DNA of 64,000 bases from Tubiluchus corallicola (GCA_030141605.1 JAQGDQ010000003.1:1736001-1800000), one strand, 5' to 3'; positions 3,503 to 64,000 are shown, numbered from the stretch's first letter. Notes: generated by a model from the letters alone, not told the origin. Translations and numbers: made by a program.

Positions 3503-5136
3503 AAGCACGTTTGTAGTTTTTTTAGTCAAAAAATGGAAAAAAATGACATGTCCATTCTTATAAAGATGAAAATACAAGAATGCATCAAGAGACTTTTCAA
3601 AGATCAGCTACCTGTAAGACTGTACACGTTGCTGTCTACAACACGTTCTAACCTTTACAACGAGCCAAAATCAATATGAGCTTTGATGCAGTAAGTTGCA
3701 AATAATGCTCACTTATTAGTTTACCTATATGAACAGCCAAAGAATGTCAATTATCTTTCTGCCAAATCGATTAGAGCACGTTTTTTTCTTCTTTGTAAGC
3801 AGAAATTATATCAGAGTTTGCTTCTCGTTTTGTTGTTTGCTGAGAAAGACTTCCATGCCAGCGTTTGGGTTTGATAAACAGAGGCTTACAAATGAATGGT
3901 AGAGTGGAATAACGATAATTTAGACATCTTCTTAATGTATTTTTACTCCAGTAGAAAAAACACTTAAACTGCAAAATAATTTATGCAAATTCAAAAAATA
4001 AGGAATCATGTGTAAAATTTCCGCAGCATCAGTGACAATAGTCAGCACATTTACTACTGTGAAAGTCATGCTTTTTTGGGCAACTCGGACATAATTTCGA
4101 CTAACAAGCAAATTCCACGAATACAAACTGAGTTCACACGCAATTGTGTAAATTACGTGTGAAAAGTAAGTGTTTAAGTGAAAAGTAAGTTAGACGGGAA
4201 GAGAGATAGAGTTTAAAACGGTTTAAAACAATAACAATGTTTGTTTTCATCGTTATTGCAGAAAAGATTGTTCACCAGTAGATATCACTAAAGGAAATTC
4301 AGCGCTCACTCTAATCAGTACAAACACCACATATTGTTCGACGGTGTCAGTATAAATGTAATTTTTTAAGTTACAATACTGTTAGTACAGAATATTATAT
4401 TTGAATGTTTTAATAGTTATTGTAACCAATCTTGTCACATTTTCTGACCACGGAGACAGTTTTGCTACACTTACAGTAAGACCCGCTTTCTACCAGGGTT
4501 GTACAATAGGCATTTTTGCCGATTTCATATTGAACTAAGTCTTTACAGCTCAAAGAAGCAAAACTGCGACAAAAACAACAATAAATGCAGATCTATAAGG
4601 GCTGTTTTATTATAGCCATAATTGAAACAAACTAGAAAAACTATAGTAAATGCAGCTTCAACTGCAAGCACTCTATCATTATACTTGCACTGCACAAATG
4701 AAAGCATATGACTTAAAAAATAAAGTAAATTTACTCTCTGCTTACTTAACACACAAAGAGGTGAGTGCAATAGTAAAAGACGTTCAATTCCCTTGATGGC
4801 ATGATCCATTATATTTAATTTTAGCTTCATTGATTTTCCGTCTAGAACAAGCGATTTATAGGTAATGCATGTCTTGCGAAAACATGACACGCACTAGAGG
4901 CTTTGTAGTCTACAAGCTCATAGTCATAAGCCAATAATTTTACAAAGCAGCAAAATAATTATAACGGCTGAAACAATAATTAGTTTGCCAATGTCAACAC
5001 ATGACAAGCTGCACCAAGAGGTTTCCCATTCTGTAGCACATCGCTGTCTTATAATGGGGTTATATTTTGAGTAAATTTAACTTCTAACTATCATTGAATT
5101 TGGAATTGAGAACAAACTCTTCATAACCCCCACCCA

Positions 5137-5205
5137 ACACACACGCACACGCACGCACGCACGCACACACACACACACGCACAAACGCACGCACCTACAC
5201 GCACG

Positions 5206-5296
<91 letters not shown>
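5137..5296. repeat. (CA)n/(CACG)n microsatellite
   Basis: Direct reading. Confidence 0.97.
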
Positions 5297-5300
<4 letters not shown>

Positions 5301-8033
5301 CGGTTCTACATATACAATTATACATAATTATACATGTATGCACGTCAAAACACAAACTACAGAATTCAATAGAAGGGCCTACTTAACGAGGATGGCTATG
5401 AAACTTGTGGTGAGACCGAAGCCTGGCAAATTATCAAGGCGATTTCTGAGAAGGCACGCTGAATCAACAGAGTGTCTTGGGCTCATTCGAACGTGAATAC
5501 ATCCCCCTCTCAATGAGATATACCAATTGTAGGGCAGTAGGTTCGTTTACGTATTAAACATCACAAGCTACTGGAATCCGCTCTAGTGAACATACAAAAT
5601 ATTAATTTAATGAATGTAATCTCACCAGGGAATAATCAATAGGTAATCTAGGTAACTAACAGCCTCAATTTAAGACCACTGTCATTCGCCCAGTCCTTTA
5701 ATTTTCGTTAACTGCCTAAGCAATCAGTTCCCATGGCAACCCCGACATAAGATAAAGGTGGAGTTTGGCATGCAGTATTTGCTTGCTTTCTTTGACGATT
5801 ATACTACAACACGAAAAGTTATTATTGTCTCCTGTATTTTTCTGCCGTCCTTAAAAACACCTTGAGAATAAATTATCACTTGAATATTAATCTAATATTA
5901 TGTTCATGTCAGTTTTGCAATTTACATTGTCCCCTGTGGGCACAACAAAGCAGAAAATCAGCAGTGTTTCTTATAATTTAATGTTACTCCGTACCATACT
6001 TGTTTGACAACATTAATGACATTTGAAGTGTCTCTGAATTCACATTTTTCAAGGTAACCGATTATTTAATATTTACAACGGCTTTAATAGATTTTGTGTG
6101 GTCAGTAGTACAGATGTGAAAAATAATTATGAAACGCCTAAGCAAGTTTTACAACTGAATGTATTAATATAGCAGTTAGAGAAGGGACGTGTTGTTGGCT
6201 CTACTAGGAACTCTGCATTTTCAATGTAACTATCCTTACGTAATTTTGTCATCTATAATTCTTTTCCCACAGTTTCACAGGAAGGCAGAATCAGGATGAT
6301 GAAAATTGAGGTTTACTGAACAGATGAACTGCAGTAGATAGAGGCTTTATTTATAATCAAACAGCAAATGTGTACTTCAGTTGGTGCTCTTATCAGGTGT
6401 ATAAAAGGGGAGTGTATCGCATTCCCACAAACACTGCTATTTTACATAAAAGCTGTTAAGAAAAAGTCTCAGTTTCAGCAAGACTTAATCTCCGTATATG
6501 TCAAGGAAACATTCTCGTACAGAACTGGCGACCTTGTTCATTTTTAGCCCCAGGGATGCGCAGAGGTAATCAAAACAGAACGCAGGAACGGTACTGTGTG
6601 ACCCAAAAAAATGAAGAACAAACTATTTTATAGCAAGTTGAGCTAGGAACAAAACAAACTGTGAGCAATTCACAAGTATCAACAAGTTTAATCAGTAAAG
6701 ATTAGGAACAAATTGATGGAATCGGGCAGATTAAGGAAGCCCAACATGAGGAAAACATCATCAGGTTCTGATACTCAGTGTAGTGGCAAAAAGGCAATTA
6801 AAGACAGTCATTTGGCATGTCCTCAAGTTATACAATGACAGCAATGGGGGTAACTGGAGTATTCCTTTTCCCAACGGAAATCTAGAGCTCTCTATTTGGT
6901 TGTGAGTGGGCTAGCTGAATGAGTAATAAAACTAATGGGTTTCCTAGTGGACACAAAACTTTGCAACGGCATGTGTAGATCTCAGTTACAATATTCACTG
7001 CAAACTTTTTCTGAAGTTGTAGTCTCCTATTCTTAGCAAAAGCAACTCCTGAAACTAAGCACCCAGAAGCGAAGCTAAAAAATATAACTTGATACCAGCA
7101 GACTAAAATACAGTAAAAGAAATCCCAAATAATCAGGTACAAACCTAAGCTGTCAATGAAATAGACCGCAGTTTCCACACAAAGGAATTTTGTTCTGGAA
7201 TGAGGATAAATTATGATACGTTCTAAGAAGAAAAACTAAATTTTGACCTTTAATTTTTTGACAACACCATTGCTATGTCAAACTTCCATAAAAAAATGCA
7301 TGGCTCCAAAAATATCTAAACGAATAATCAAGGTACACAATAATTATGGAATTCTACATAGTTGTGATAAAGCTGCTTCAATAATGATTACAAATAGCAG
7401 CTAAGCCTTATAAGCCTCATAAAGCTAACAAACGCCACCCTAACAGGTCTGACATTTAGCGTTTTGATCACATTATAGGCGACAGCTAGTGGTTTAATAA
7501 TGAATGACAAACCAACAAAGTGCAAAGGTGATACTAACACAGCAATTAGGAAACTATGCCATATGCTAGTAAATAACAAGCGTTGCAAATAAGTCCAAGC
7601 TAGAACTTAACACTTAAAAGACAAGCTCAAGTTTTAGCATAAATTTTGCTGCCACATTGTTAAGTTTTAAAACTTTTTATTTTGCTTAATTTATTTTCTT
7701 TTATTGTTGATCTTGTTGTTCTTGATGATGTATGTTAACTGAAAAAGTGCTTTCGTAGAACTGTCAAGTATTTATATTTAATTTGACTGCTTATTCATTA
7801 CTGCAAATTATAAATTTGTTCTTCCCAAACAGTACGGTGTAAATGAGTTTTATACGGAAGATTAATGAATTCAACTGTTCACGAGCATTGTTTTTCGACG
7901 GAAACTTTATTCTCTCTTCACTTTTCCCTGCAGTTTTAACTTACAAAACGGCACAAGTTAAAACTAAATTATACGTTACAATGACGCTCACCTAAACAAA
8001 AATTTTGGTGTTATGTCGGTGACCTTTACTTAC

Positions 8034-11989: not shown

Positions 11990-14900
11990 TAATGAAGTCA
12001 TCCTTAATTACTTCAACAAATGATCTCAAAGTGTCGCTGTCATTTTGCTTTTGAATTAACACAGCAATGTTAGTGGTGTTAATGTTATTCTTAAAAACCG
12101 CTTTTGTGAGTCTACGAAAGGGCAGTCGAAAAGTAGATGTTCACAATTTTGGGGAAGACCACATAAACAAGAATTGTCATATATGAGACCTAATCGGAAT
12201 AAAAAATGTTTAAAAAATCCTTGTACATGAATAAAACTTAGAGCAATGGATTCGAACTCTCTATTTGTAGGTGAAATTGGTAAATTAAAGGGCTTACTAA
12301 GTTGTGGGATTATGCCAAACCATTCATTTCTGTTTTCTAACAAAATATAAGCATTGAATTGTCTGTGCCTAAGAGTTTGCTTGAATTTATCCAGATCAAA
12401 TTTTGTAACAGACCAATTAATAGATAGTTCTTCGTTGTTAATTCGCCCTGCATCTCTAGTAGTAGCTAAAAATTGCCTTAAATCTCTAGCATAATATTTT
12501 ACAAAGTGGTTATATAACAGATAAAAGTTAGTATTAAATATGTACAAAAGTTCTTTCTTAACTAGATCATCATCACCACCCTGCAATATTTTACTTAGGA
12601 ATCTTACATTATGAGCTTTCATTTCTAACAATACCCTGCAAGGTTTAAAGGATTAACCCGTTGCAGTTCTGAGGACATCTTAATACAAGTCATCAAATAA
12701 TGAATATTTTTTTAGCTAACCAAACACTGGCACTGTATAGTATAACAGGTAATACAAATGTTTTAAACAATTGCATAATAGTTGCCATTCTCATTCCTCT
12801 GTATTTAAAACACAGTTGTTTAATTTGTGTCCATTTGTGCCATGCATTTTTCGTAACTCTATTGGCATAATAATCAAATTTCAGATTACTGTAATAGTGA
12901 TACCCAGTACTGCACTATTTTGAACATATTCAATTTCATTATCACCAATTTTTAATTTGGGCAAATTGTTATTTACTATATTTTGCGTAGACCCCGTGAT
13001 CATAACTTCCGTTTTTTTTCCCATTACAGTTGACTTTCAGCCGCCATTTTTTACACCATAGATGTAACTTATTACAATAGATTTGCGCAGTATTACGACA
13101 CTCATCAGTCATCAGAGTTTGCTTTAGAAGCGTAAAATGTGCCATCGTTTGCGTATTTAAAGACGTCTGCCATTTTATTGGATCTTACATCATTCAGCAT
13201 TTCTGAGATAAAATTATGAATAAAAGAGGCGAAAAGACAGAGCCTTGCGGAAGGCCAATATTACTGTTAAACATTTGAGAACAGAAATTACCTACACTGA
13301 TAAAAAATGATCGACTCAAAAGCAATTCCTAATTGATACAATTTGAAGATTAAGCCTTTGATCCACACACTGTCAAAGGCCTTTTCAAAATCACAAAAGA
13401 CACCGATGGCAGGACATGTTTTTCTTTGTGAGGTCACTTTGCATTTTACTAATTAGGCGAAACAGATATCGTTCAGTACTATGTCCTGAGACAAAACACT
13501 CCTGTACTGTTCAATACCTCCATTGGGCATTTTAGAATTAATCGGTTAGCAAAGAGTCGCTCGACAAGCTTGCCTATGTAGGAAGACAACGACAAAGGAC
13601 GATATGCATTGGGATCCGCATATTCATCTTTGCCCTGTTTTTTTAATAAATATTATTTTGGATTCTAACCAAAGCCATTCTTGCGTGCTTAAGCATACAG
13701 TACTTACATTCAGAAGTATAGATTTGGCCCAAAATCATTCGGGGATGGATACCATCCATACCAAAGCTTTTACCGTTTGAAGAACTTGAAAGGAACATTC
13801 AAAAAGTCGTCATTTCCTTCACTATATTCTAAGGAGTCAACAAACTGATGAACGAACCCTTTCCAGTTGTTATCAAATACGTCGTTGTCCAAATGGTTAC
13901 CACCCATGAAGAAGGTTTCATGGAACAAGTTGCACTTGTCCTCATCAGTAATATAATAACGGTTATCATTTTTAAGATGTCAACTTGATTGTCTTTTATG
14001 TTAGGAAATACCTTATGATATGCTTTCCAAAAGTTTACGCTTTTGGACGAGTTCATATTAACTGAGTTATTGAGAATCCAGTTATCTATTTGTAAAATTA
14101 AACTGCCTTTAAACTCTTTAGCTTGAATATATGCATTATAGGCATTATGGGACGAGTAACGCTGATACCTCTTTTTGAGTTGTCGAACATTTTCACGTTT
14201 TAATTCGGGATTCCAAAATGGTTTACTGTATTTACATACACGTTTGACAAGCAGGATTTCGTTAGAAGTTTCAGTAATCAAATGCCTAAAGCGCTCCCGC
14301 AATTCTTTTGCATTTCGTAGATTCATACATGTAATAATACTGTTAAAATTTTCCCGTATTTTAGTTTCTAAAGTGTGAGGCCACAGAGCCCAGTCTGCAT
14401 TCTTCAAATCATAAACTCGGCGAACCTTACGATTTTCGCTATGTCCAGCGTTATTATTCTAATGAGTTATAACTGGATAGTGTCCCATTCTGGGAGCCCC
14501 AGAAAATAATTCAATTTCTTTTTCAACATACTGTTCGCGAACTTGAGTAGCAATACGGCCACTAGCCAAAATAAAATCTATGACACTTGTTCCATTAAAA
14601 GATTGAAAAGTAATATCGTCGGGGCTACCAGAACTGCACTATTATTAACAATATAATCGTACAGTAATGAACCGTGTACATTATTGGTAGTATCCCATAA
14701 TGTATGGCGACAATTCAGGTCTCCAGTGATTAAAGTTCCAGCTAGACTGTGCTGACTAGCAAATGAATTGGCTTCACGGCAGTTGTTTAACATAGCTTGT
14801 AGGACGTGGGGCGAATTTGGCGGAACATACGCTGACGCTGATAAAATTCTGTAGTTTTTAACACTAACTAAAACCCATACAATGTCAAGGTCTCTATGTT

Positions 14901-15172
14901 CTAATTCTGGGACTCTACAGCACGTAATACCTTTTCTTACAAGTAGAGCGCAACCACCTGATGTTCCCTGAGATGGTTTAGCATATGTTTTGAAATTAGT
15001 TAACTGTATCGATTTAATATTTTTGCGTTCAATTTTAGTTTCTTGGAGGGCTAATATGTCACAACCAGGCCTTAAATCATTAATATATCCATCTAATGCA
15101 ATTTTAGAATGCAAAGAAAGGTTATTGATATTTATCTGACAAATTACAAGAGGTTGCTCTTTATGCTCCACC
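11990..15172 (-). pseudogene. LINE ORF2 (endonuclease/reverse transcriptase), frameshifted
   Basis: Multiple frameshifts; catalytic YADD reads YAND at 13155-13144. 3' end approximate. Confidence 0.88.
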
Positions 15173-16374
15173 GTTGCTTTGCTGTTTCTTCTCCCACTTT
15201 TTGCAAGTCGGACAATCTGTGTTGTCAGCAGTATGGCGGCACGCACAATTTGCACATTTGGTTTCCTCTGATGAACAATCTTGCGTTTTGTGATTCCCAG
15301 CACACTTTTTACATACTGGATTTTTCTTACAGAGTCTAGCTATGTGATTGAACTTCTGACAATTAAAGTATCTGATTGGTTTTCGCAAAAACAAGAATTT
15401 GTCAACACAGCATAACATATTACCGATGAAAAGTCCTTCTTCTATAGCTTGTTCTAAGTCGCTTTCCTGTTCGAATTTCACCGTTGTTAGAATTTTCTCC
15501 TGTTTATGAAACCTTTCTATGCTTGCTCCAGGATAAGCTTTAGACACAAAGTTTTGCACTTCTTGATCAGTTAGTTCAGTGTCGACGTCACGTATTAATC
15601 CGATTCTGTTTTGTATAGGGTGTCTTGCATTTGAAACCTCCCAAAAACTCGGGTCTCCTATTAGCTACAACAGCCTGAGCCTCCTCAGCATCACGAAATT
15701 GAAGCTGCACATTACCTCTTGTGGTTTTGTAGGCCAATCAAATCTCGGTTTCGGAAAATGTATGCTGATGTGCTTCTTAATAAGCATACTATTAGCAATC
15801 AAATCCCTTCTTTTCACATTCTCTATAATAACAGTTTTGTTCGCCTCGTATTCAACAGTTCTTCGGTTCATTGGTTTAACTATACTACTTCCTGGACGAG
15901 CTACAGAATCGTTTCCATTCGAAGTTTTAACATTCTGCATTAGTTTACCTGCATAAGACATCTGTACAGAATTATTTTTCCGTGATTCATCTTCTAATTG
16001 CTGAATTCTAGTAAGAGACTGTGCATGACTAGTTTTTAACTTTTCCAAGGCAGCAGTAACGTTCCTTAACACTTTGAAAAGACCATCAATTATTTTGTGT
16101 AAATATTTTGCATACTTACAATCGTTAGCATCGCCCCAAGGTATTTTGTCATCCTTGCCTCCAACGAGTGCAGAGCGGTCAGGCGAAGTCGGCAACATAA
16201 TTGCTTCGGTTTCGTGATTATTACTATTTGACGAACATTTTTTTGTACACATTTGTTGCAAATTTTAAGCCCACCGAACTCGGGTCTTTTACAAACATCT
16301 GTGTTTCTACGGCAAATTATGCATGTGTTCCGCTCTCGTTTTCCAGTTGTATTAGCTGCTGCCACAGGTTTCAT
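15161..16374 (-). pseudogene. LINE ORF1 (gag-like), frameshifted
   Basis: Fragments in three ORFs; [Y]FNCQKFNHIARLC, CKKCAGNHKTQDC and CANCACRHTADNTDC knuckles. Confidence 0.85.
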
Positions 16375-16632
16375 TTTGTGTGCCAATTTCACCTTGTAAA
16401 TAGGCCTGCACACCTTTAACGAATTTTCAATCAATGTTCGAATGCCAATAGCACAATAACCATACCACGAAAATTGACAAATTATATATTAAAAGCACAG
16501 CAATATCACGAAGATTAAGATGCTCAAGTTATTTCTCAGCTAAGTCTGATTTTTCGCCACTTAAATTATCAAGTTATAAAAACTTTTCATGGACGATCAA
16601 GATTTGTACCTGCACAAAATGAGCGCATGCGC

Positions 16633-27008: not shown

Positions 27009-27151
27009 CGCAAGCAAAGGCGTCAACTTTGACAAAGTTACAGACTGCTAACCAATGATATCTGAATCAGTGCAGCCAGTCTCAAAAAATCTTAAGAGCA
27101 GGAATCTCGTTTATATTTCAAAATATTTCTAGTAAAAATGACGAAGACTTA

Positions 27152-27478
<327 letters not shown>

Positions 27479-47778: not shown

Positions 47779-49351
47779 GTAAAGATAATAATGAAAGTTT
47801 AACATAAATGTCCTTCAACTGTTTTACAGCTTTTTAGATAATTTTCAAACTAAAACAAAGGCTAACCAGCTGTCTCAACATTTATATCGCTGGAAAACAT
47901 TACTATTTCTAGAAAAGAAAACCTTTTTAACACTGATCGTAGACTGTGGATACCTGCCATCACTCCATAGAAAATGCTAAGTGTAATGAAGCAGTTGTTG
48001 CAATTCTTGTATTAATCCATCAGAACCACTTAAAACGCGAACTACCACTCATGACATCGTATCCTATTTTGATAACGTATGGTTTGTTACTCTTTCTCAT
48101 TTGATTGGTACGACATTTATACTAATGACTTGATGCAAGGGATAAAAAAATGAAAGGTATGATCTTCAAGATTAAAAAATGGTCAGGCTGGCTTGACCAA
48201 AACATCTGAAAAAGTTCTAAAATGCTCATCTGCAGTTTCCAGACTATGGAGAACATATCCAATGAATATCAACTAGAAATCACATTAAAGATAAGCCCGA
48301 GATAAATAATTTGCAATAATATAAATAGGAACTGTTTGCTTTCTCATTGTTTGTCATTATACGTCATGTAGAACATGTTGTAATGCATCAATGGCATGTG
48401 TACGAACAGGTCTACGTTAGGCGTTCTCTTATTCATAATTTACACCATTGATCCAAAGAATTGTTTATCACATGCTAAAATGTTTAAGCGTACACTTTGT
48501 ATGCATGTCATTTTTGTTGAAACAAAGCTCATCAATACTCAATGTTTAAAGGTAAATTTTAACTATTTATTCATACAGTAACTCCTTGCATAACAACGCT
48601 AATGCATTTCAGCATAATGCGACATTAAGGGAAACATCATAAATAAACTGACTTAAATAGAAAGCAATGTAAAAGAAGTGAGATACTTTCCAGAAGCAAA
48701 AATCAATGCTGTTGAGTCATATAATTAAACTTTTTATGAGTTTTATTCATATTTCTGCTAACTGCTTATTAGCTGCTTCTGTTTGCTTGAAACCATCTAG
48801 CTCTCTTATCTATAGCTAGACTTGCGAGCAGTTTCTCTTGCCAGTTAAACACTGCGTGTTAAACACTGGGTAATGAAAGCCAAGCCCTGCATGGAGCGAC
48901 CTTAAGACAATTTTATGCAGTACTGAGCTGGTTTCAGTGGCAAGAGGTTGCAGACAAAGTTTCTTGGCAAAATTTTAAGCTCAGGTGTCTGGAGGCGTAT
49001 AAATCGGCAAATAGATCACACTTGATAAAAACAGCTAGAATTTAATACGTTAGTCGGGAAGCAAAAACATTATAATAATTGCACTGTTTAGATTACTAAT
49101 CCTTTTTTAGAACAGAATAATGCAATATGTACTGTTTTAGTTATTCAAATTAGGTAAAAAGTAGTTGATAAAATAATTAATGGCTGTGGGCAAAGTAAAA
49201 AATCGTTATTAATATTAACTGAGAAAAGGGTGGCAAATGTTCAGCATCGTTAAAATGAAATAATGTCGCTAAACAGGTAGTCGTTAAGCAAAGACTTACT
49301 GTATGGTGTGTGCTACAGATTATTGAATTAGTTAGTTTTTTTTATTTGCAG

Positions 49352-49541
49352 GACATTAACATGTCTTCAAATGAAATATCATGTTTGCCAGAAGATTTTT
49401 TTGTTTGCTTACCATTTTTGGAATGGTTAGATATGAGATGCAACAAGTTACAGTTATTACCTTCCTCTATAGGACAGCATCCTCATTTGAAGTATCTCCT
49501 TTTGTCTAACAATAATTTGACTAAACTTCCTACTTCTCTGG
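49352..49541 (+). CDS. LRRC27: LRRC27-like, LRR exon
   Basis: tttgcag|DINMSSNEISCLPEDFFVCLPFLEWLDMRCNKLQLLPSSIGQHPHLKYLLLSNNNLTKLPTSL+G|gtatgt. Resembles recalled human LRRC27 ([33 protein letters not shown]). Confidence 0.9.
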
Positions 49542-50098
49542 GTATGTTAGTGCATCCAATCTCAATTTTGCTAATATATTTAATACTTGATCATTAAGAA
49601 TTTTCACCATGCTGCTTTCACATTTTCACCTAGCCAAAATCAGTCTGATTCGAAGCAGTTTTGTTTTGTATTACTTATAGGAATGTTGTTGCAATTGGGT
49701 ACTAAAATATAATCAGTGCATTGGCATATGAACTTCTACTTCTTGTTCTTCCAGACATTTAGAGGATTTATCATGACTTACACTTCTTCTATAGCTTTTT
49801 TTTATTTTTACATATTTTGATTATTATATATTCAGTCATCCTGTAATCGCTTGAATTGGTTGGCTAATTCACTGCCTGGACTTACTGTGTAAGCACCAGG
49901 TTCAGGTTAACACTACTGTTTTGAATGCTTATTGATAGTTTTAGCAAGTACCGTGGCTTATGGTTTAGACTCTAGTTTTGCATAGCTTGTTACTAATCTG
50001 CTTTGTTTCCATGCATTTTTTACATTGCTAGTATAACAGAATAAAGTTATAATATAAAGAAACTAGTTTACATTGTTTTTCATTCTCTTTTCTTTCAG

Positions 50099-58325: not shown

Positions 58326-59177
58326 GTAGTCTAATGTGGTGTGGGTTTATGTGCAAAATTACACGACTAGTTTACATTAATTTTAGTCAAACATATTAAT
58401 TCAGCTGTCAGCTTACCTGATATGACTTTTATTGAATTTGCTATTTCCAAGTGTAATAACATGATTATAGACAAGTGAGAGTACCAGACTATCAGGTAGT
58501 TGAGGTTGGGTGGGTACCAGCTTAAAAGTACAAGTAATCTTTGATCTACTGCAATTGTGCATGTGTTAAAGAAACTCTAAAAAGACTTATTGTGACTCAA
58601 CAATAGCACTTACTGCTGTTGTTGAATACATATGGCTGGAACCTAGCTGATTATCAAGGGTAAAGCTCTTCTCTTGGTCTCTTTGATGACACTCTGATCT
58701 GGCAGAGTTGCCTTAGCCTCATGAAGGCAGGAACATTCCTAATACAATTAGGCTTGGCTGTACTTAACCTCAGGGCCAGACACAGTTTGTAGCCATTTGC
58801 GTATGTGCACTCATTTGATAAATGGCCAAAATTTGAAAATGGGTAGTCTGGTGATTGTTGTTTCTTAGTTCACTGTAATATGTCAGGTGAAAGCTAATTA
58901 CTGAAAGACTTTGTTAACAGATTTCATTTCAAAGTTGCAGTGTCTCAAAATTGCTCAGTATCAGTCAATAAACTATATGCTGTAAGCTAGTGGTTACTTC
59001 AAAATTACAATGCCTTATCTTTAACAGCACACACTGCAGTCCTTCACTGTATAGAACTGAACTAGAATTGTTATATACAAGTGCTTTAAACGTATTCTTT
59101 TTTTCACTTTTCTACTCTCTGTGCCATAACTTATATATTTTTGTTGGTTCTTCTGAAAGCTGCTTATTCTTTCTTAG

Positions 59178-59198
59178 AAAAGGCAGTTGACCAGATGA
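59178..59198 (+). CDS. Possible terminal coding exon of the LRRC27-like gene (KRQLTR*)
   Basis: Strong acceptor ttctttcttag; phase 0 gives a short peptide and TGA. No homology support. Confidence 0.3.
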   Translation, partial: KRQLTR

Positions 59199-62172
59199 AG
59201 ACTTTTTTTAGAGATGTGGTCTTGAAGATTGCTTGCAATGTTTTGATTTCTAAGTAAGTTTTTTTAATTAATTAGTATTGATAATGTATTGTAAGCTATA
59301 ATGTGCCAGTGGCTCATATTATCATTGCTAACTACTAATAAACATTCTTGCAGTGATTTTTATCAGCTATGATGTTTCTTATAAAATAAACTTGCACTTC
59401 ATTTCACTTGAAATCACGTGCCTGATGCTGTTTTATTGAAATGTATCTTTTGTAACCAAATGACATTGTTTTTTTTTGCTAAATGCAAATAAATGCTTTG
59501 GTTTTATTCCATTTCAATAAAATCATCAGGTAATGCTTTAAATCAAGTCATGTTGCATAGTGAAATTTCCTGGAAAATTTAGCAAAGGCCTGCAAAACCT
59601 ACAAGTAGAAGAAACAGAAAAAAATGTGTAAGTTGTCAAGGGTTTGATTTGTCGTCCAGTCATTTCCAAAACCCTTTGGTCACAGTTCAGCCATATTAGC
59701 CTCTTGTACTTTGTAGTGTGTACCCAGCACATGCCACGAATGAATCACATGATTGATTACAACTTGTATTAGATGAAATAACGTTTAGCAAGATTTTATG
59801 CACTATTCAATCACTGACAAGTTTTTTATGCTTTAAGCTTAAAAGCAAAATGTGGCATTAACAACTTAATGCGGAATTTAGATAATATCACAATAATTTT
59901 AGGAATACGATAAGCTCATACTTAATAACACTCACATTAGTCTTCTCTAAAACACCCTTATTTTCTAATAGAACAGGTGTTCATAGTTCATCAGCATTAA
60001 GTCAATAAAACTAGTTTTGTTTTGAAATGCTATTCTGTTGCACAAATTTTTCGGGTGGACCTGAAACAAGCAGGAGGCTGTGAGACATGCACGAAATGCG
60101 ATTTCAGTAAAAATTTTGCACTAATTGGACCTAAAATCGGAATGAACCTGCAGGAGGATAATGTCCATAGTCAGGCAAATTTTCAAGTTTTAACTGTACT
60201 TCTTTTTGGCAGTTATAGTGTGGCACTACAACCAAGCAACGGCATACAATGAAGAGAGTTAAAATGTTGCTTGCCCACTCTCTGATAAGGTTAAAAGCTA
60301 CAGTAACATGTTTCTTCTAGTGAACATCAATATTCACTTAGAATAAGGTATGCCCAATTTCTTTCTTTCAGATGTTTGGCAGGATAATGCAATAGAGCCT
60401 AATCCATACTGACATGATACAAGTTCACCATTTTTATGAACTACATCACTTATCACATAGTTACAGTTAATTAAAACTTGTATTGATTTTTTTTCACCAA
60501 AATTGGTGAATAATAGATGAAATAAAACATTGTTACTTATTTAAATATTTATTAGTACATTAATACAAGTCAAATTAGCACTTTACACAAATTACTTTGC
60601 ACAGCTGTAACACACTGCATTAGTTCTGATATTTATTGGGTTAGTCAGTACAATTTAAATAAATAGCACTTTCTTTACTTTTAAACTGCTATAAAATTTA
60701 TGCTGACTTATACAATTATAATCTCCATTTCAAACAAACACATCTTGCTTATTTGGTTAAAGAAAATCTTTTTGTCGTTCAAAAGACCTTATTATAGAAT
60801 CGATTTCCCATATTTACTTTTATAAATTTAACAGGTAACTAATATAAAAAAAAGATTACGAAACAAATCACATATTATTTCAACAATTTTGATGTTAATG
60901 AAAATTTAAAATCATGTGACACATTGGCAAAACGTGCCAAAATTACCAAAATTTTTCTTACTGGCTAAAATATGTCACTTTCGAAAAGGAAACATAGTCT
61001 GACTTTTGAAGTGACACATTTGAAAAAAGTATGTTATAAATGAATGCAAAATACAATTTTTGTTCATTAACATTTACATTCATTTATTTTGAGGCTGAAA
61101 CCAAATGGCAACATTTATGAACAATGTCAATGTTGCTGTATTGTGCAAATGACCTTAGCTTGCACCACCATTTTTACTAGCCAATCTTAAATTACACAGG
61201 ACTATCAAATTTTGAATTAGCTGCATAATGTTTGGCACAACTTTGTGAACAAACAGTTTAACAGAATCATACCAAAATGCTGCTTCTGATGTAACACAAT
61301 GCCAGCTGTGTCACAATCTTATTAATGGCTTTTATTAACCACATTTGAAACCAGAAGTAACCAGTTACACCATCTAAATTCACGTACAACAGGCACGTCA
61401 TAGTCATTTTGACAATATAATTATGTACATCACAAATTATACACATGAAAGTCGGTTACAGTTAATTAGTACAGTCTCAACAGATCAAAATTGAGAATTG
61501 TTGCACAAATTACATATCACACCATTGAATTACTTGCAACAAAGCAGTTTTAAAATCTATCTTACATGAAAATGCTGAAACAAGATCCAATTCTATACAC
61601 GCCTATTACCAGGTGACTCGGTGCAATGCGTTTTATTCAGTTTTATAATAACAAAACTAACCACACGTTAAAATTGACAATCAATGCAATGTGATATAAT
61701 ACTAACTCAGCTATATAACTAACTATGTAACTCAGCTATAAATATAGCCAGAACAAAAAATAAATTGCAAACTCGTGTATTAATTTTTTCAATAAGCCTC
61801 AGAATTTCTTGAATGACTACATTTAAATGCTTAATATGAATAAGGCATAGGTTAATGCCCACTATTTAGTTTACTATATCATGAAAGCGAAAGAGACAGA
61901 AAAAAGAATAATACACTAGCATGAAACTGAAATGCTTTGTTTCATTATCAGTTAAAGATATTACTTTTACTGTCTGTCACTGAAAACAAAACCTATATAA
62001 CTCCAATTCCCAGCAGCATAATTGGAGATAGCTAGTACTAATCAGAATCATCAGACCATGTGAAATTAGACAATTCTGAGTTAATTACATATTTCCTTTG
62101 TGCAACAAGGTTTAGCTTGTTCAGAAAAATAGAAAGTACAAACATGTATTTGGTGCATAGACACAGCAAATA

Positions 62173-62754
62173 TCAGCTGGAGTTAGGCCAGTTTTGAAAG
62201 TAAGCAGAATATCCCGCCAAAGCATTGAGCAAAAGCGAATCGTCCGGAAACATTTGCTCAGAATAGGGTTGCGCTGTTGCCGGACTCTGCAACAAATCTC
62301 TATATCGTGCTTGAGCGGAATTGAGATATGTGGAAGCTGAAGAGCAATATTCACTTTGTGGAACTTCTGCTAGTAACGCATTCTGCAGAATCGAATCACC
62401 ATCCCTGTCTAGTCTTGGGTGTGAATTATTTGCTACTGTTTCCCTGTAATCATCTGCTAAAGTGCCATAAAATGACGATACAAACTGATTATTCCTGCGA
62501 TGCTGTGTATCATACTGCGAGTTACTTTGTCCAGCTAGAGCACGTCGGAGATTGATCCTCTGCTGAGCCTGGTTCTGGTAGTATGCACCGTACTGACTAG
62601 TAAAATCAAACGCAGGACTGGTGAGCCCGGATAATGAGCCAGAAAGAGCGCTGAAGAGAAAAGAGTTAGGATCAGATGCCTCCGTTTTCACGTTCAGCCG
62701 TTGATCGACAGCCGTGTGTACACTGCTGGGTTGGACAGCACGGCTTGCACCTAG
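62173..62754 (-). CDS. Putative stop-codon readthrough extension of PIAS (193 codons plus TGA)
   Basis: Open frame directly in phase after TGA-CTAG; visibly more GC-rich than the 3' UTR below 62170. Confidence 0.7.
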   Translation of the reverse strand, partial: LGASRAVQPSSVHTAVDQRLNVKTEASDPNSFLFSALSGSLSGLTSPAFDFTSQYGAYYQNQAQQRINLRRALAGQSNSQYDTQHRRNNQFVSSFYGTLADDYRETVANNSHPRLDRDGDSILQNALLAEVPQSEYCSSASTYLNSAQARYRDLLQSPATAQPYSEQMFPDDSLLLNALAGYSAYFQNWPNSS

Positions 62755-62757
62755 TCA
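62710..62757 (-). promoter_or_regulatory. Readthrough signal: UGA-CUAG plus 3' stem-loop
   Basis: TGA CTAG GTGCA AGCCGTG...CACGGCT; arms at 62745-62739 and 62716-62710. Confidence 0.65.
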
Positions 62758-62904
62758 GTCCAAAGATATGCAGTCCTCAGGGGAGCTAGCCTGCTGGTTG
62801 TTAAATGTGGAGTGAATCACCTCTGGTGTAGAACTTGCTGTACGGAAGGCACCATTGTTAGTAGGAGGGCTGTAGGATCTCTCTGGCATCATAGTTAGAC
62901 CCAG
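62755..62904 (-). CDS. PIAS: PIAS-family SUMO E3 ligase, last coding exon to the canonical stop
   Basis: tttttag|LGLTMMPERSYSPPTNNGAFRTASSTPEVIHSTFNNQQASSPEDCISLD*; the end matches the PIAS1/2/3 C-terminal SIM (DIISLD*). Confidence 0.8.
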   Translation of the reverse strand: MGLTMMPERSYSPPTNNGAFRTASSTPEVIHSTFNNQQASSPEDCISLD

Positions 62905-63325
62905 CTAAAAATAAAATTGTGTCAGTTCAGAACCATAACTATGTTAGTTTTCTATACAACATTAGTTTATAGACATACACAAAATATGCCAATTTACTAA
63001 AAATGCTATGGAGCTTCATAACAGAGAAAACTTGTGACAAATTCGTGGTTACAATAATAAATACATTAATTGAAATTTGCCTTGGTACAGGTTTAACATT
63101 TGTGATAGTACAAAACAGAAAATATTATCATGTTTTATACCTTCACACTGCAGTTATACGGCAAAAGTATGTTTGCATTTTTAGCAACAGTAACTTACTA
63201 ACTATAAGGAAATACTTATTCCTAGAACATGTTCCAAGCTCATATTTAGTTGTATGTATATAACAAAATGTTTCATGTGAACAGTTCTAGTTATGCAAAA
63301 GACGGACGTATACAAGTCAACTTAC

Positions 63326-63369
63326 TTGTCTTGCCTGTTCTTGCTGTAACATGCTGAACAAATCGTATC
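63326..63369 (-). CDS. PIAS: PIAS-family SUMO E3 ligase, penultimate coding exon
   Basis: tatttag|(G)YDLFSMLQQEQARQ|gtaagt; matches the recalled PIAS3 segment GLDLFSFLQTESQ. Confidence 0.75.
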
Positions 63370-64000
63370 CTAAATACAAAAGGCACAGTAATCAACAGCA
63401 TGTAAAAATCAATGATGTTGCACGATGTACAATCGTGCACATGTAACAAGATGTCTGGTAGATACATGCTCAAAAAATTGGGGTACTAGGGACTATTAGG
63501 TATGGGCAGCTGTAACCTTCTTAGAAATAGCAATAATCTCTTACCTATTCATGGATACTTTGGACAAAATTGCCAGTATTTCACATTTTCTAAGGAAACA
63601 GTGTGTTATGTTTATTATAGTTTTTCACTTGCACATCAGAATACGTTTTCGAAAACTAATGGTGCGAGTTGGTTTGGCATGCACATAAAAGCAATGTTAG
63701 GATGCAATGGTAATCAACTCAAGCACAAAGGCAAATGTGAATTTCACTACGGTTTAATGTAAAAATATATTAAACAAGTCTTGCTTTTCTTACTAGTGCA
63801 ATTTAAATGGCTGATTTGGCATTCAAAGTTGGTACAACTTACATCAGGAGGGCATGCTAAGCTGATAACTAAATCAGTGAAATAGTATTAAAAGCACAAA
63901 TTACTAAACTGTTGCTCACTTGTTAACCACAAGGTGCACTCATAAATTAGCAGATCGAAGTAGTGAATGAAAAAGTAATAATATTTACTCATCAAACTTT

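Follow-up and report, generated by a model that had tools for sequence, protein, structure and literature searches.

The last exon of a gene for a PIAS-type SUMO E3 ligase is followed, in frame and directly after its stop codon, by a long run of sense codons, which raises the question of whether these codons are translated and by what route. The gene lies on the minus strand of the window, the 64,000-nucleotide stretch of DNA that was analysed, in an AT-rich animal genome (GC about 0.30-0.38), and only its last two exons fall inside the window. Minus-strand translation of 62904-62173 gave LGLTMMPERSYSPPTNNGAFRTASSTPEVIHSTFNNQQASSPEDCISLD, TGA at 62757-62755, 193 sense codons and a second TGA at 62175-62173. 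As judged from the sequence, the 193 codons past the first TGA are probably translated at low frequency through readthrough of UGA-CUAG, which would add a disordered, lysine-poor tail to the ligase.

Host gene and canonical C terminus

The two exons were placed as follows.

63326..63369, minus strand: penultimate PIAS coding exon, 44 nt, encoding (R)YDLFSMLQQEQARQ, with the phase-0 donor CAA/GTAAGT
62758..62904, minus strand: last PIAS exon up to the canonical stop; 49 codons that follow the acceptor ...ttttatttttag and finish with the family C-terminal xSLD (here CISLD)

The 49 residues before the stop matched one protein, P0003, and were 94% identical over the end of P0003. This protein matched solved PIAS2 (4fo9, E 2.7e-20) and PIAS3 (E 1.6e-15). 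Its start corresponds to the end of an SP-RING (zf-MIZ) domain (Pfam E 0.002, under the cut-off because the domain is truncated), followed by a SUMO-interacting motif (SIM) of the CIDLT-plus-acidic type; in the window's gene, both of these parts lie beyond the window end. Because P0003 carries the PIAS2 and PIAS3 matches, the SP-RING end and the SIM, and its tail shares 94% identity with the exon, sequence comparison identifies the host gene as a PIAS-type SUMO E3 ligase. P0003 reads ...PRYDLFNMLQQEQARQ joined directly to LGLTMMPE, and the window has an intron between these pieces. Since P0003 is continuous from ...YDLFNMLQQEQARQ into LGLTMMPE across that intron, the contig of the relative was taken to be a spliced transcript.

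Compared with Pfam, the 49 residues before the stop gave just a weak DUF3736 match (E 0.24), which was disregarded. The last exon up to the stop aligned with the C termini of Priapulus and scorpion PIAS proteins. The nearest annotated protein, PIAS2-like of Priapulus caudatus, was only 40% identical, a sign of sparse sampling of the lineage. The P0003 lineage (window exon 62758-62904) and Priapulus have in common a tail that finishes with SSTPEV[IV]...SP.E.I.LD, and in both of them the terminal xSLD seems to be preceded by a second xPEVI element; in the scorpion protein there is just one TPDVISLD.

Position and context of the first stop

The canonical product ends ...SSPEDCISLD directly before the TGA, and the product represented by P0003 likewise stops after ...VSLD. 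Among the 120 homologues listed, 86 end in ISLD and none has an internal xSLD with a further tail; Priapulus ends IPLD. On this comparison the position of the first stop is ancestral. The idea that a recent nonsense mutation had shortened an originally longer protein was considered and rejected, the stop being where 86/120 homologues end.

The bases that follow the stop are those of a known readthrough context.

62751..62757, minus strand: stop and readthrough context TGA-CTAG (TGA 62757-62755, CTAG 62754-62751)

In RNA terms the stop reads UGA-CUAGGU. CTAG occurs in the window at 0.0028 per base, and coincidence is an unlikely explanation for its position right after the stop, ahead of 193 open codons. 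RNA structure 3′ of the stop was tested against shuffled sequences, and none was significant (z -0.09, -0.46, -0.08). The one hairpin of note, with a 7-bp outer stem (about 62710-62745, minus strand), begins 9 nt past the stop and was no better than shuffles (z -0.46). Thus no extra 3′ RNA structure for readthrough is supported, and none would be required.

An open frame of 193 codons

Beyond the first stop, the following features were defined.

62176..62754, minus strand: in-frame extension, 193 codons, with no stop between that of PIAS and the second one; raised GC; lysine-poor and rich in S, A, L, Q, N and Y
62173..62175, minus strand: second stop, TGA, ending the extension; GC beyond it 0.25-0.33; the relative's open reading frame P0001 has the same ...NWPNSS end

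The first-pass annotation had given the extension as 62176..62691. The frame itself is real, but this interval is just its GTG-started part, as the frame is open back to the PIAS stop. Over the 579 nt of the extension, there are 0 stops in frame 0 and 8-14 in each of the other five frames. The probability of 193 open codons, calculated analytically, was 2.5e-4 on the extension's own composition and 1e-6 on flank composition. GC was 0.40-0.57 over 62160-62905 and 0.23-0.38 on either side; it did not fall at the first stop, and the step ends exactly at the second. Of the five stop-to-stop frames of at least 190 aa in the 64 kb, all but this one belong to a retroelement at 12-16.3 kb. Since the sole Met of the extension is residue 168, the extension does not have an independent ATG start.

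Serine (28 residues), alanine (22), leucine (20), glutamine (18), asparagine (14) and tyrosine (12) make up much of the 193, in agreement with the S/Q/Y/N-rich spacers that had been described. The extension matched 0 Pfam families and gave no usable match in the ESM Atlas. A metagenome scan with the extension yielded 97 pattern matches, 0 of them confirmed. The idea that the extension duplicates the tail or body of PIAS was rejected (BLASTP E 3.7 and 7.8).

Other features of the window

A cluster of open frames of 132-253 aa at 12056-16488 (minus strand) is probably a non-LTR retrotransposon; one frame encodes an endonuclease/exonuclease/phosphatase domain (E 1.3e-10) and weakly matches an endonuclease-reverse transcriptase (E 6.9e-06), just under the Pfam cut-off. 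An exon at 27149-27478 (minus strand) encodes a partial protein kinase domain (Pkinase, E 2.6e-22), and one at 49259-49597 (plus strand) encodes leucine-rich repeats (LRR_8, E 2e-10). A long (CA)n/(TG)n microsatellite at 5077-5496 gives runs of repeated residues in several frames.

Conservation in a relative and within the species

When 1.84 billion representative proteins were searched with the extension, one true relative, P0001, was recovered, and a near-length search likewise returned P0001 alone; P0002 was a repetitive false match with 0 matched stretches and was dropped. P0001 is a 157-aa open reading frame on a 3082-nt contig and aligned to extension residues 41-193 with 84% identity (129/153) and two in-frame indels, of 3 aa and 1 aa. 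The last 13 residues and the end position are the same in P0001 and the extension. P0001 and P0003 presumably come from the same contig; because each derives from one 3082-nt spliced contig, the mRNA of the relative appears to join the stop and the open reading frame.

Between the relative and the window, the extension is 84% identical and the segment before the stop 94%. By rough estimate, ~7% neutral nucleotide divergence could yield 84% identity, and the joint chance under neutrality of no stop and two in-frame indels is ~0.03-0.04. Because neutral drift could give 84% and this chance amounts to a few percent, the comparative evidence is supportive, not decisive: conservation of the extension frame in one relative is suggestive at the sequence level. 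The readthrough candidates of Jungreis et al. 2016 are said to rest on multi-species codon-substitution signatures.

Run X1, from the same species, is DNA-like and covers introns. It has a 9-nt in-frame insertion behind 62551 (62551/62552), which places D-T-Y after N68 and before L69; P0001 has these three residues too. As D-T-Y is common to X1 and P0001, the window allele looks like a derived deletion. No X1 substitutions were found in the 732-nt exon, and all 5 listed lie in ~1360 nt of non-exon sequence; zero in the exon against about 3 expected is a weak hint that the extension is coding. Another run, X2, possibly of RNA, matched only 60538-60851 at <95% likeness with loose ends; this is probably a repeat, and X2 was left out of the analysis.

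Taken as a whole, the 0 versus 8-14 stops, the GC step, the 84% identity and the in-frame indels lend moderate support, at the level of sequence comparison, to the proposal made in the first-pass annotation that the frame is under selection.

A lone lysine in a SUMO consensus site

The extension has a single lysine, which lies in a candidate modification site.

62680..62691, minus strand: VKTE, a psi-K-x-E SUMO consensus, extension residues 22-25, holding the sole lysine, K23

This agrees with the earlier statement that VKTE lies 22 residues past the readthrough position and holds the extension's only lysine (1 K in 193 residues). A psi-K-x-E site arose in 0.5% of 100000 shuffles of the extension, and VKTE is a plausible SUMO acceptor site on its sequence. 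The single lysine compares with 6.3 expected from first-order nucleotide statistics of the region (P 0.012) and leaves lysine-free runs of 22 residues before K23 and 170 after it. The lysine-free tail of P0003 is 140 residues long, and the median for PIAS proteins ending in xSLD is 120 residues (n = 87). By these counts the extension carries on the lack of lysine seen in the canonical PIAS tail. One consensus lysine 23 residues past the SUMO-binding motif of a SUMO ligase would make a coherent design.

Four LxxAL segments in a tail predicted to be disordered

Four similar segments had been reported in the extension, and translation places all of them at the residues listed.

62638..62667, minus strand: motif copy 1, NSFLFSALSG, residues 30-39
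62530..62559, minus strand: motif copy 2, RINLRRALAG, residues 66-75, holding the site of the D-T-Y insertion of X1 and P0001
62368..62397, minus strand: motif copy 3, DSILQNALLA, residues 120-129 (relative: ESLLQSALVA)
62212..62241, minus strand: motif copy 4, DSLLLNALAG, residues 172-181 (relative: DSLLLNALTG)

The pattern [LIFMV]xxALx[GA], which was chosen after seeing the data, occurs 4 times in the extension compared with a shuffled mean of 0.07, and 4 occurrences were reached in 0/20000 shuffles. In a pattern-free analysis of ungapped 10-mer self-similarity (2000 shuffles), the top-six sum was reached by 0.15% of shuffles and the top score by 2.2%. Per residue, the pattern is ~500 times less frequent in a set of 121 PIAS sequences than in the extension. 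A derivation of the segments from a conserved D-L-F-S-x-L-type tail motif was dropped, that motif being present in 4/121 and L..AL.[GA] in 3/121.

In the relative, the core L, A and L positions of motifs 2-4 are all identical (9/9). Motifs 2-4 as a whole are conserved no better than the spacers, an outcome that the first-pass annotation had named as refuting its claim: 25/30 residues (83%) are identical versus 104/123 (85%) for the rest, a comparison of a single pair with low power. The LxxLL/CoRNR-like character that had been proposed was not found, as the 193 residues hold 0 matches to LxxLL, [LI]xx[IV]I or LxxxIxxx[IL] and the core is LxxAL. The canonical SIM pattern likewise gave 0 matches in the extension.

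AlphaFold2, run on a two-sequence alignment (a weak input), gave a mean pLDDT of 34.7 with 193/193 residues <50, and drew helices over all four motifs with pLDDT <50 throughout. The helical hydrophobic moments of motifs 1-4 were 0.25, 0.40, 0.61 and 0.20, compared with a mean of 0.24 and a 90th percentile of 0.39. The multivalent amphipathic helices suggested earlier thus find little support: no residue reaches pLDDT 50, motifs 1 and 4 are at the mean moment, motif 2 is marginal, and motif 3 alone is high. The extension is predicted to be a disordered region, and the four LxxAL segments are most likely repeated short linear docking motifs, not a folded helical domain.

Alternative explanations for the open frame

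Most of the frame could instead be expressed by alternative splicing, from the donor at 63326 or 62820 to an acceptor within the extension.

62592..62611, minus strand: candidate alternative 3′ splice site, ...tttgattttactagtcag/TACGGT, first exon base 62592, phase 0, from a consensus scan

The product would have a second PIAS C terminus beginning YGAYYQNQ..., and would lack the terminal xSLD, VKTE and motif copy 1. The scan gave exactly one in-frame donor/acceptor pair and one pyrimidine-rich phase-0 acceptor (62592); no other acceptor-like site matches the phase of either the upstream donor or the donor-like GAG/GTGATT inside the exon at 62820. Alternative C termini are also common in the PIAS family, since 34 of the 120 homologues listed do not end in xSLD/xPLD and many are annotated isoforms. 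Splicing would, however, leave TGA-CTAG as a coincidence at the CTAG frequency of the window, and the pyrimidine score of the acceptor is modest (0.65). Also against it, all 54 codons from the stop to the acceptor are open, GC peaks there (0.57), and directly before the acceptor 14/14 residues match the relative, whose transcript contig keeps the stop and the open reading frame together. We regard splicing as the main rival to readthrough, but as an improbable source of the frame. The alternative that the frame is untranslated or functionless 3′ UTR, young enough that stops have not yet been acquired, with the motifs and VKTE arising from low-complexity composition, is doubtful to a similar degree. 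It would fit the single close relative found, the faster divergence of the extension than of coding sequence (84% vs 94%), the lack of a family, fold or Atlas match, and the fact that human UGA-CUAG stops can be without a downstream coding signature, as noted in PMC4132726. Set against it are the low probability of an open frame (2.5e-4 to 1e-6), a GC step that coincides with the second stop, indels between and within species that are all multiples of three, the unchanged C-terminal 13 residues and stop position in the relative, a lysine depletion that matches the PIAS tail, and the non-random repeat statistics.

A-to-I editing and selenocysteine decoding are known ways past UGA, and the first stop codon is a UGA that editing could convert to UGG. 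Such removal of the stop at the RNA level is very improbable here. No SECIS or other Rfam family was found in 59000-64000 on both strands at E up to 1, and there is no significantly stable duplex around the stop to recruit an editing enzyme. Programmed readthrough is preferred because the TGA-CTAG coincidence is unlikely, no SECIS was found and extra structure is not required.

Among acceptor-like sites in the extension, the strongest is at 62631-62650 (minus strand; ...cctaactcttttctcttcag/C, pyrimidine fraction 0.88, phase 2). Joined to the upstream phase-0 donor, it would yield a different short C terminus, not the extension frame.

Proposed consequences of readthrough

Under programmed readthrough, some ribosomes would insert an amino acid at the UGA and continue through the extension, so that a long PIAS isoform would be made in which the normally terminal xSLD SUMO-interacting motif becomes internal. 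This shift of the SIM had been put forward in the first-pass annotation and is supported by the host being a PIAS gene: because xSLD is the usual C terminus of the PIAS family, readthrough would internalise it. The added tail would be intrinsically disordered, with four LxxAL docking motifs, and self-SUMOylation would have K23 in VKTE as its only available acceptor. A more elaborate reading, in which programmed readthrough serves self-regulation and the long isoform is a self-SUMOylating multivalent PIAS scaffold, different from the short enzyme, with its SIM buried, a ~190-residue lysine desert, one SUMO-consensus lysine close to the SIM and four LxxAL motifs, is speculative and, in our judgement, has only a small chance of being right in full.

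If the long form is made, recoding would give a core enzyme of the SUMO pathway a second form, with an internal SIM and a long disordered lysine-poor tail, and the locus would offer a natural test of the effects on ligase activity of SIM position and of having one designated acceptor lysine. It would also mark an annotation gap, as gene predictors would stop at the TGA and miss 193 codons.

Comparison with known systems

PIAS proteins have two SUMO-interaction motifs, and the C-terminal one (SIM2) is attributed to Lussier-Price et al. 2020 in PMC11367828, as cited there. In known proteins and in the canonical CISLD product this SIM is at the very C terminus, whereas readthrough would give a product with 194 residues after it. 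Lysine deserts have been described for components of the ubiquitin system (PMC10169902, PMC10665810). Those cases and the PIAS gene are alike in having long disordered lysine-free stretches in a lysine-modifying enzyme; they differ in that the former concern ubiquitin and proteasome components and the latter a SUMO ligase whose desert has one SUMO-consensus lysine.

Animal readthrough is established, and most verified UGA-CUAG cases add short tails. According to Loughran et al. 2014 (PMC4132726), UGA-CUAG is common to the four mammalian genes with efficient readthrough, deletion of CUAG abolishes readthrough, UGA-CUA alone gives about 1.5% readthrough, and a stretch of about 12 nt 3′ of the stop is enough. 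The heptanucleotide of the vertebrate genes OPRL1, OPRK1, AQP4, MAPK10 and MDH1, UGA-CUAG, is the same as that of the PIAS stop (PMC4132726); with two further bases, OPRL1 has UGA-CUAGGC and PIAS UGA-CUAGGU. In the vertebrate genes and in PIAS alike, an in-frame extension follows an otherwise normal stop, and in PIAS its frame is conserved in one relative. The vertebrate extensions are 13 and typically 28 residues long in two genes (PMC4132726), compared with 193 in PIAS, and the vertebrate cases were verified by reporters and deep phylogeny (PMC4132726), whereas the PIAS case rests on sequence and one relative, in a sparsely sampled invertebrate lineage.

Readthrough is reported to be abundant in Drosophila and in Anopheles (Jungreis et al. 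2016, PMC5100048), where, as in the PIAS gene, the extensions stand behind a leaky UGA in animal nuclear genes; a search of the main text of that paper found no mention of PIAS. No report of readthrough of a PIAS ligase was found in the main texts of the open-access literature covered. Readthrough as a class is well known, and what stands out in the present case is how long the extension is and which enzyme is concerned.
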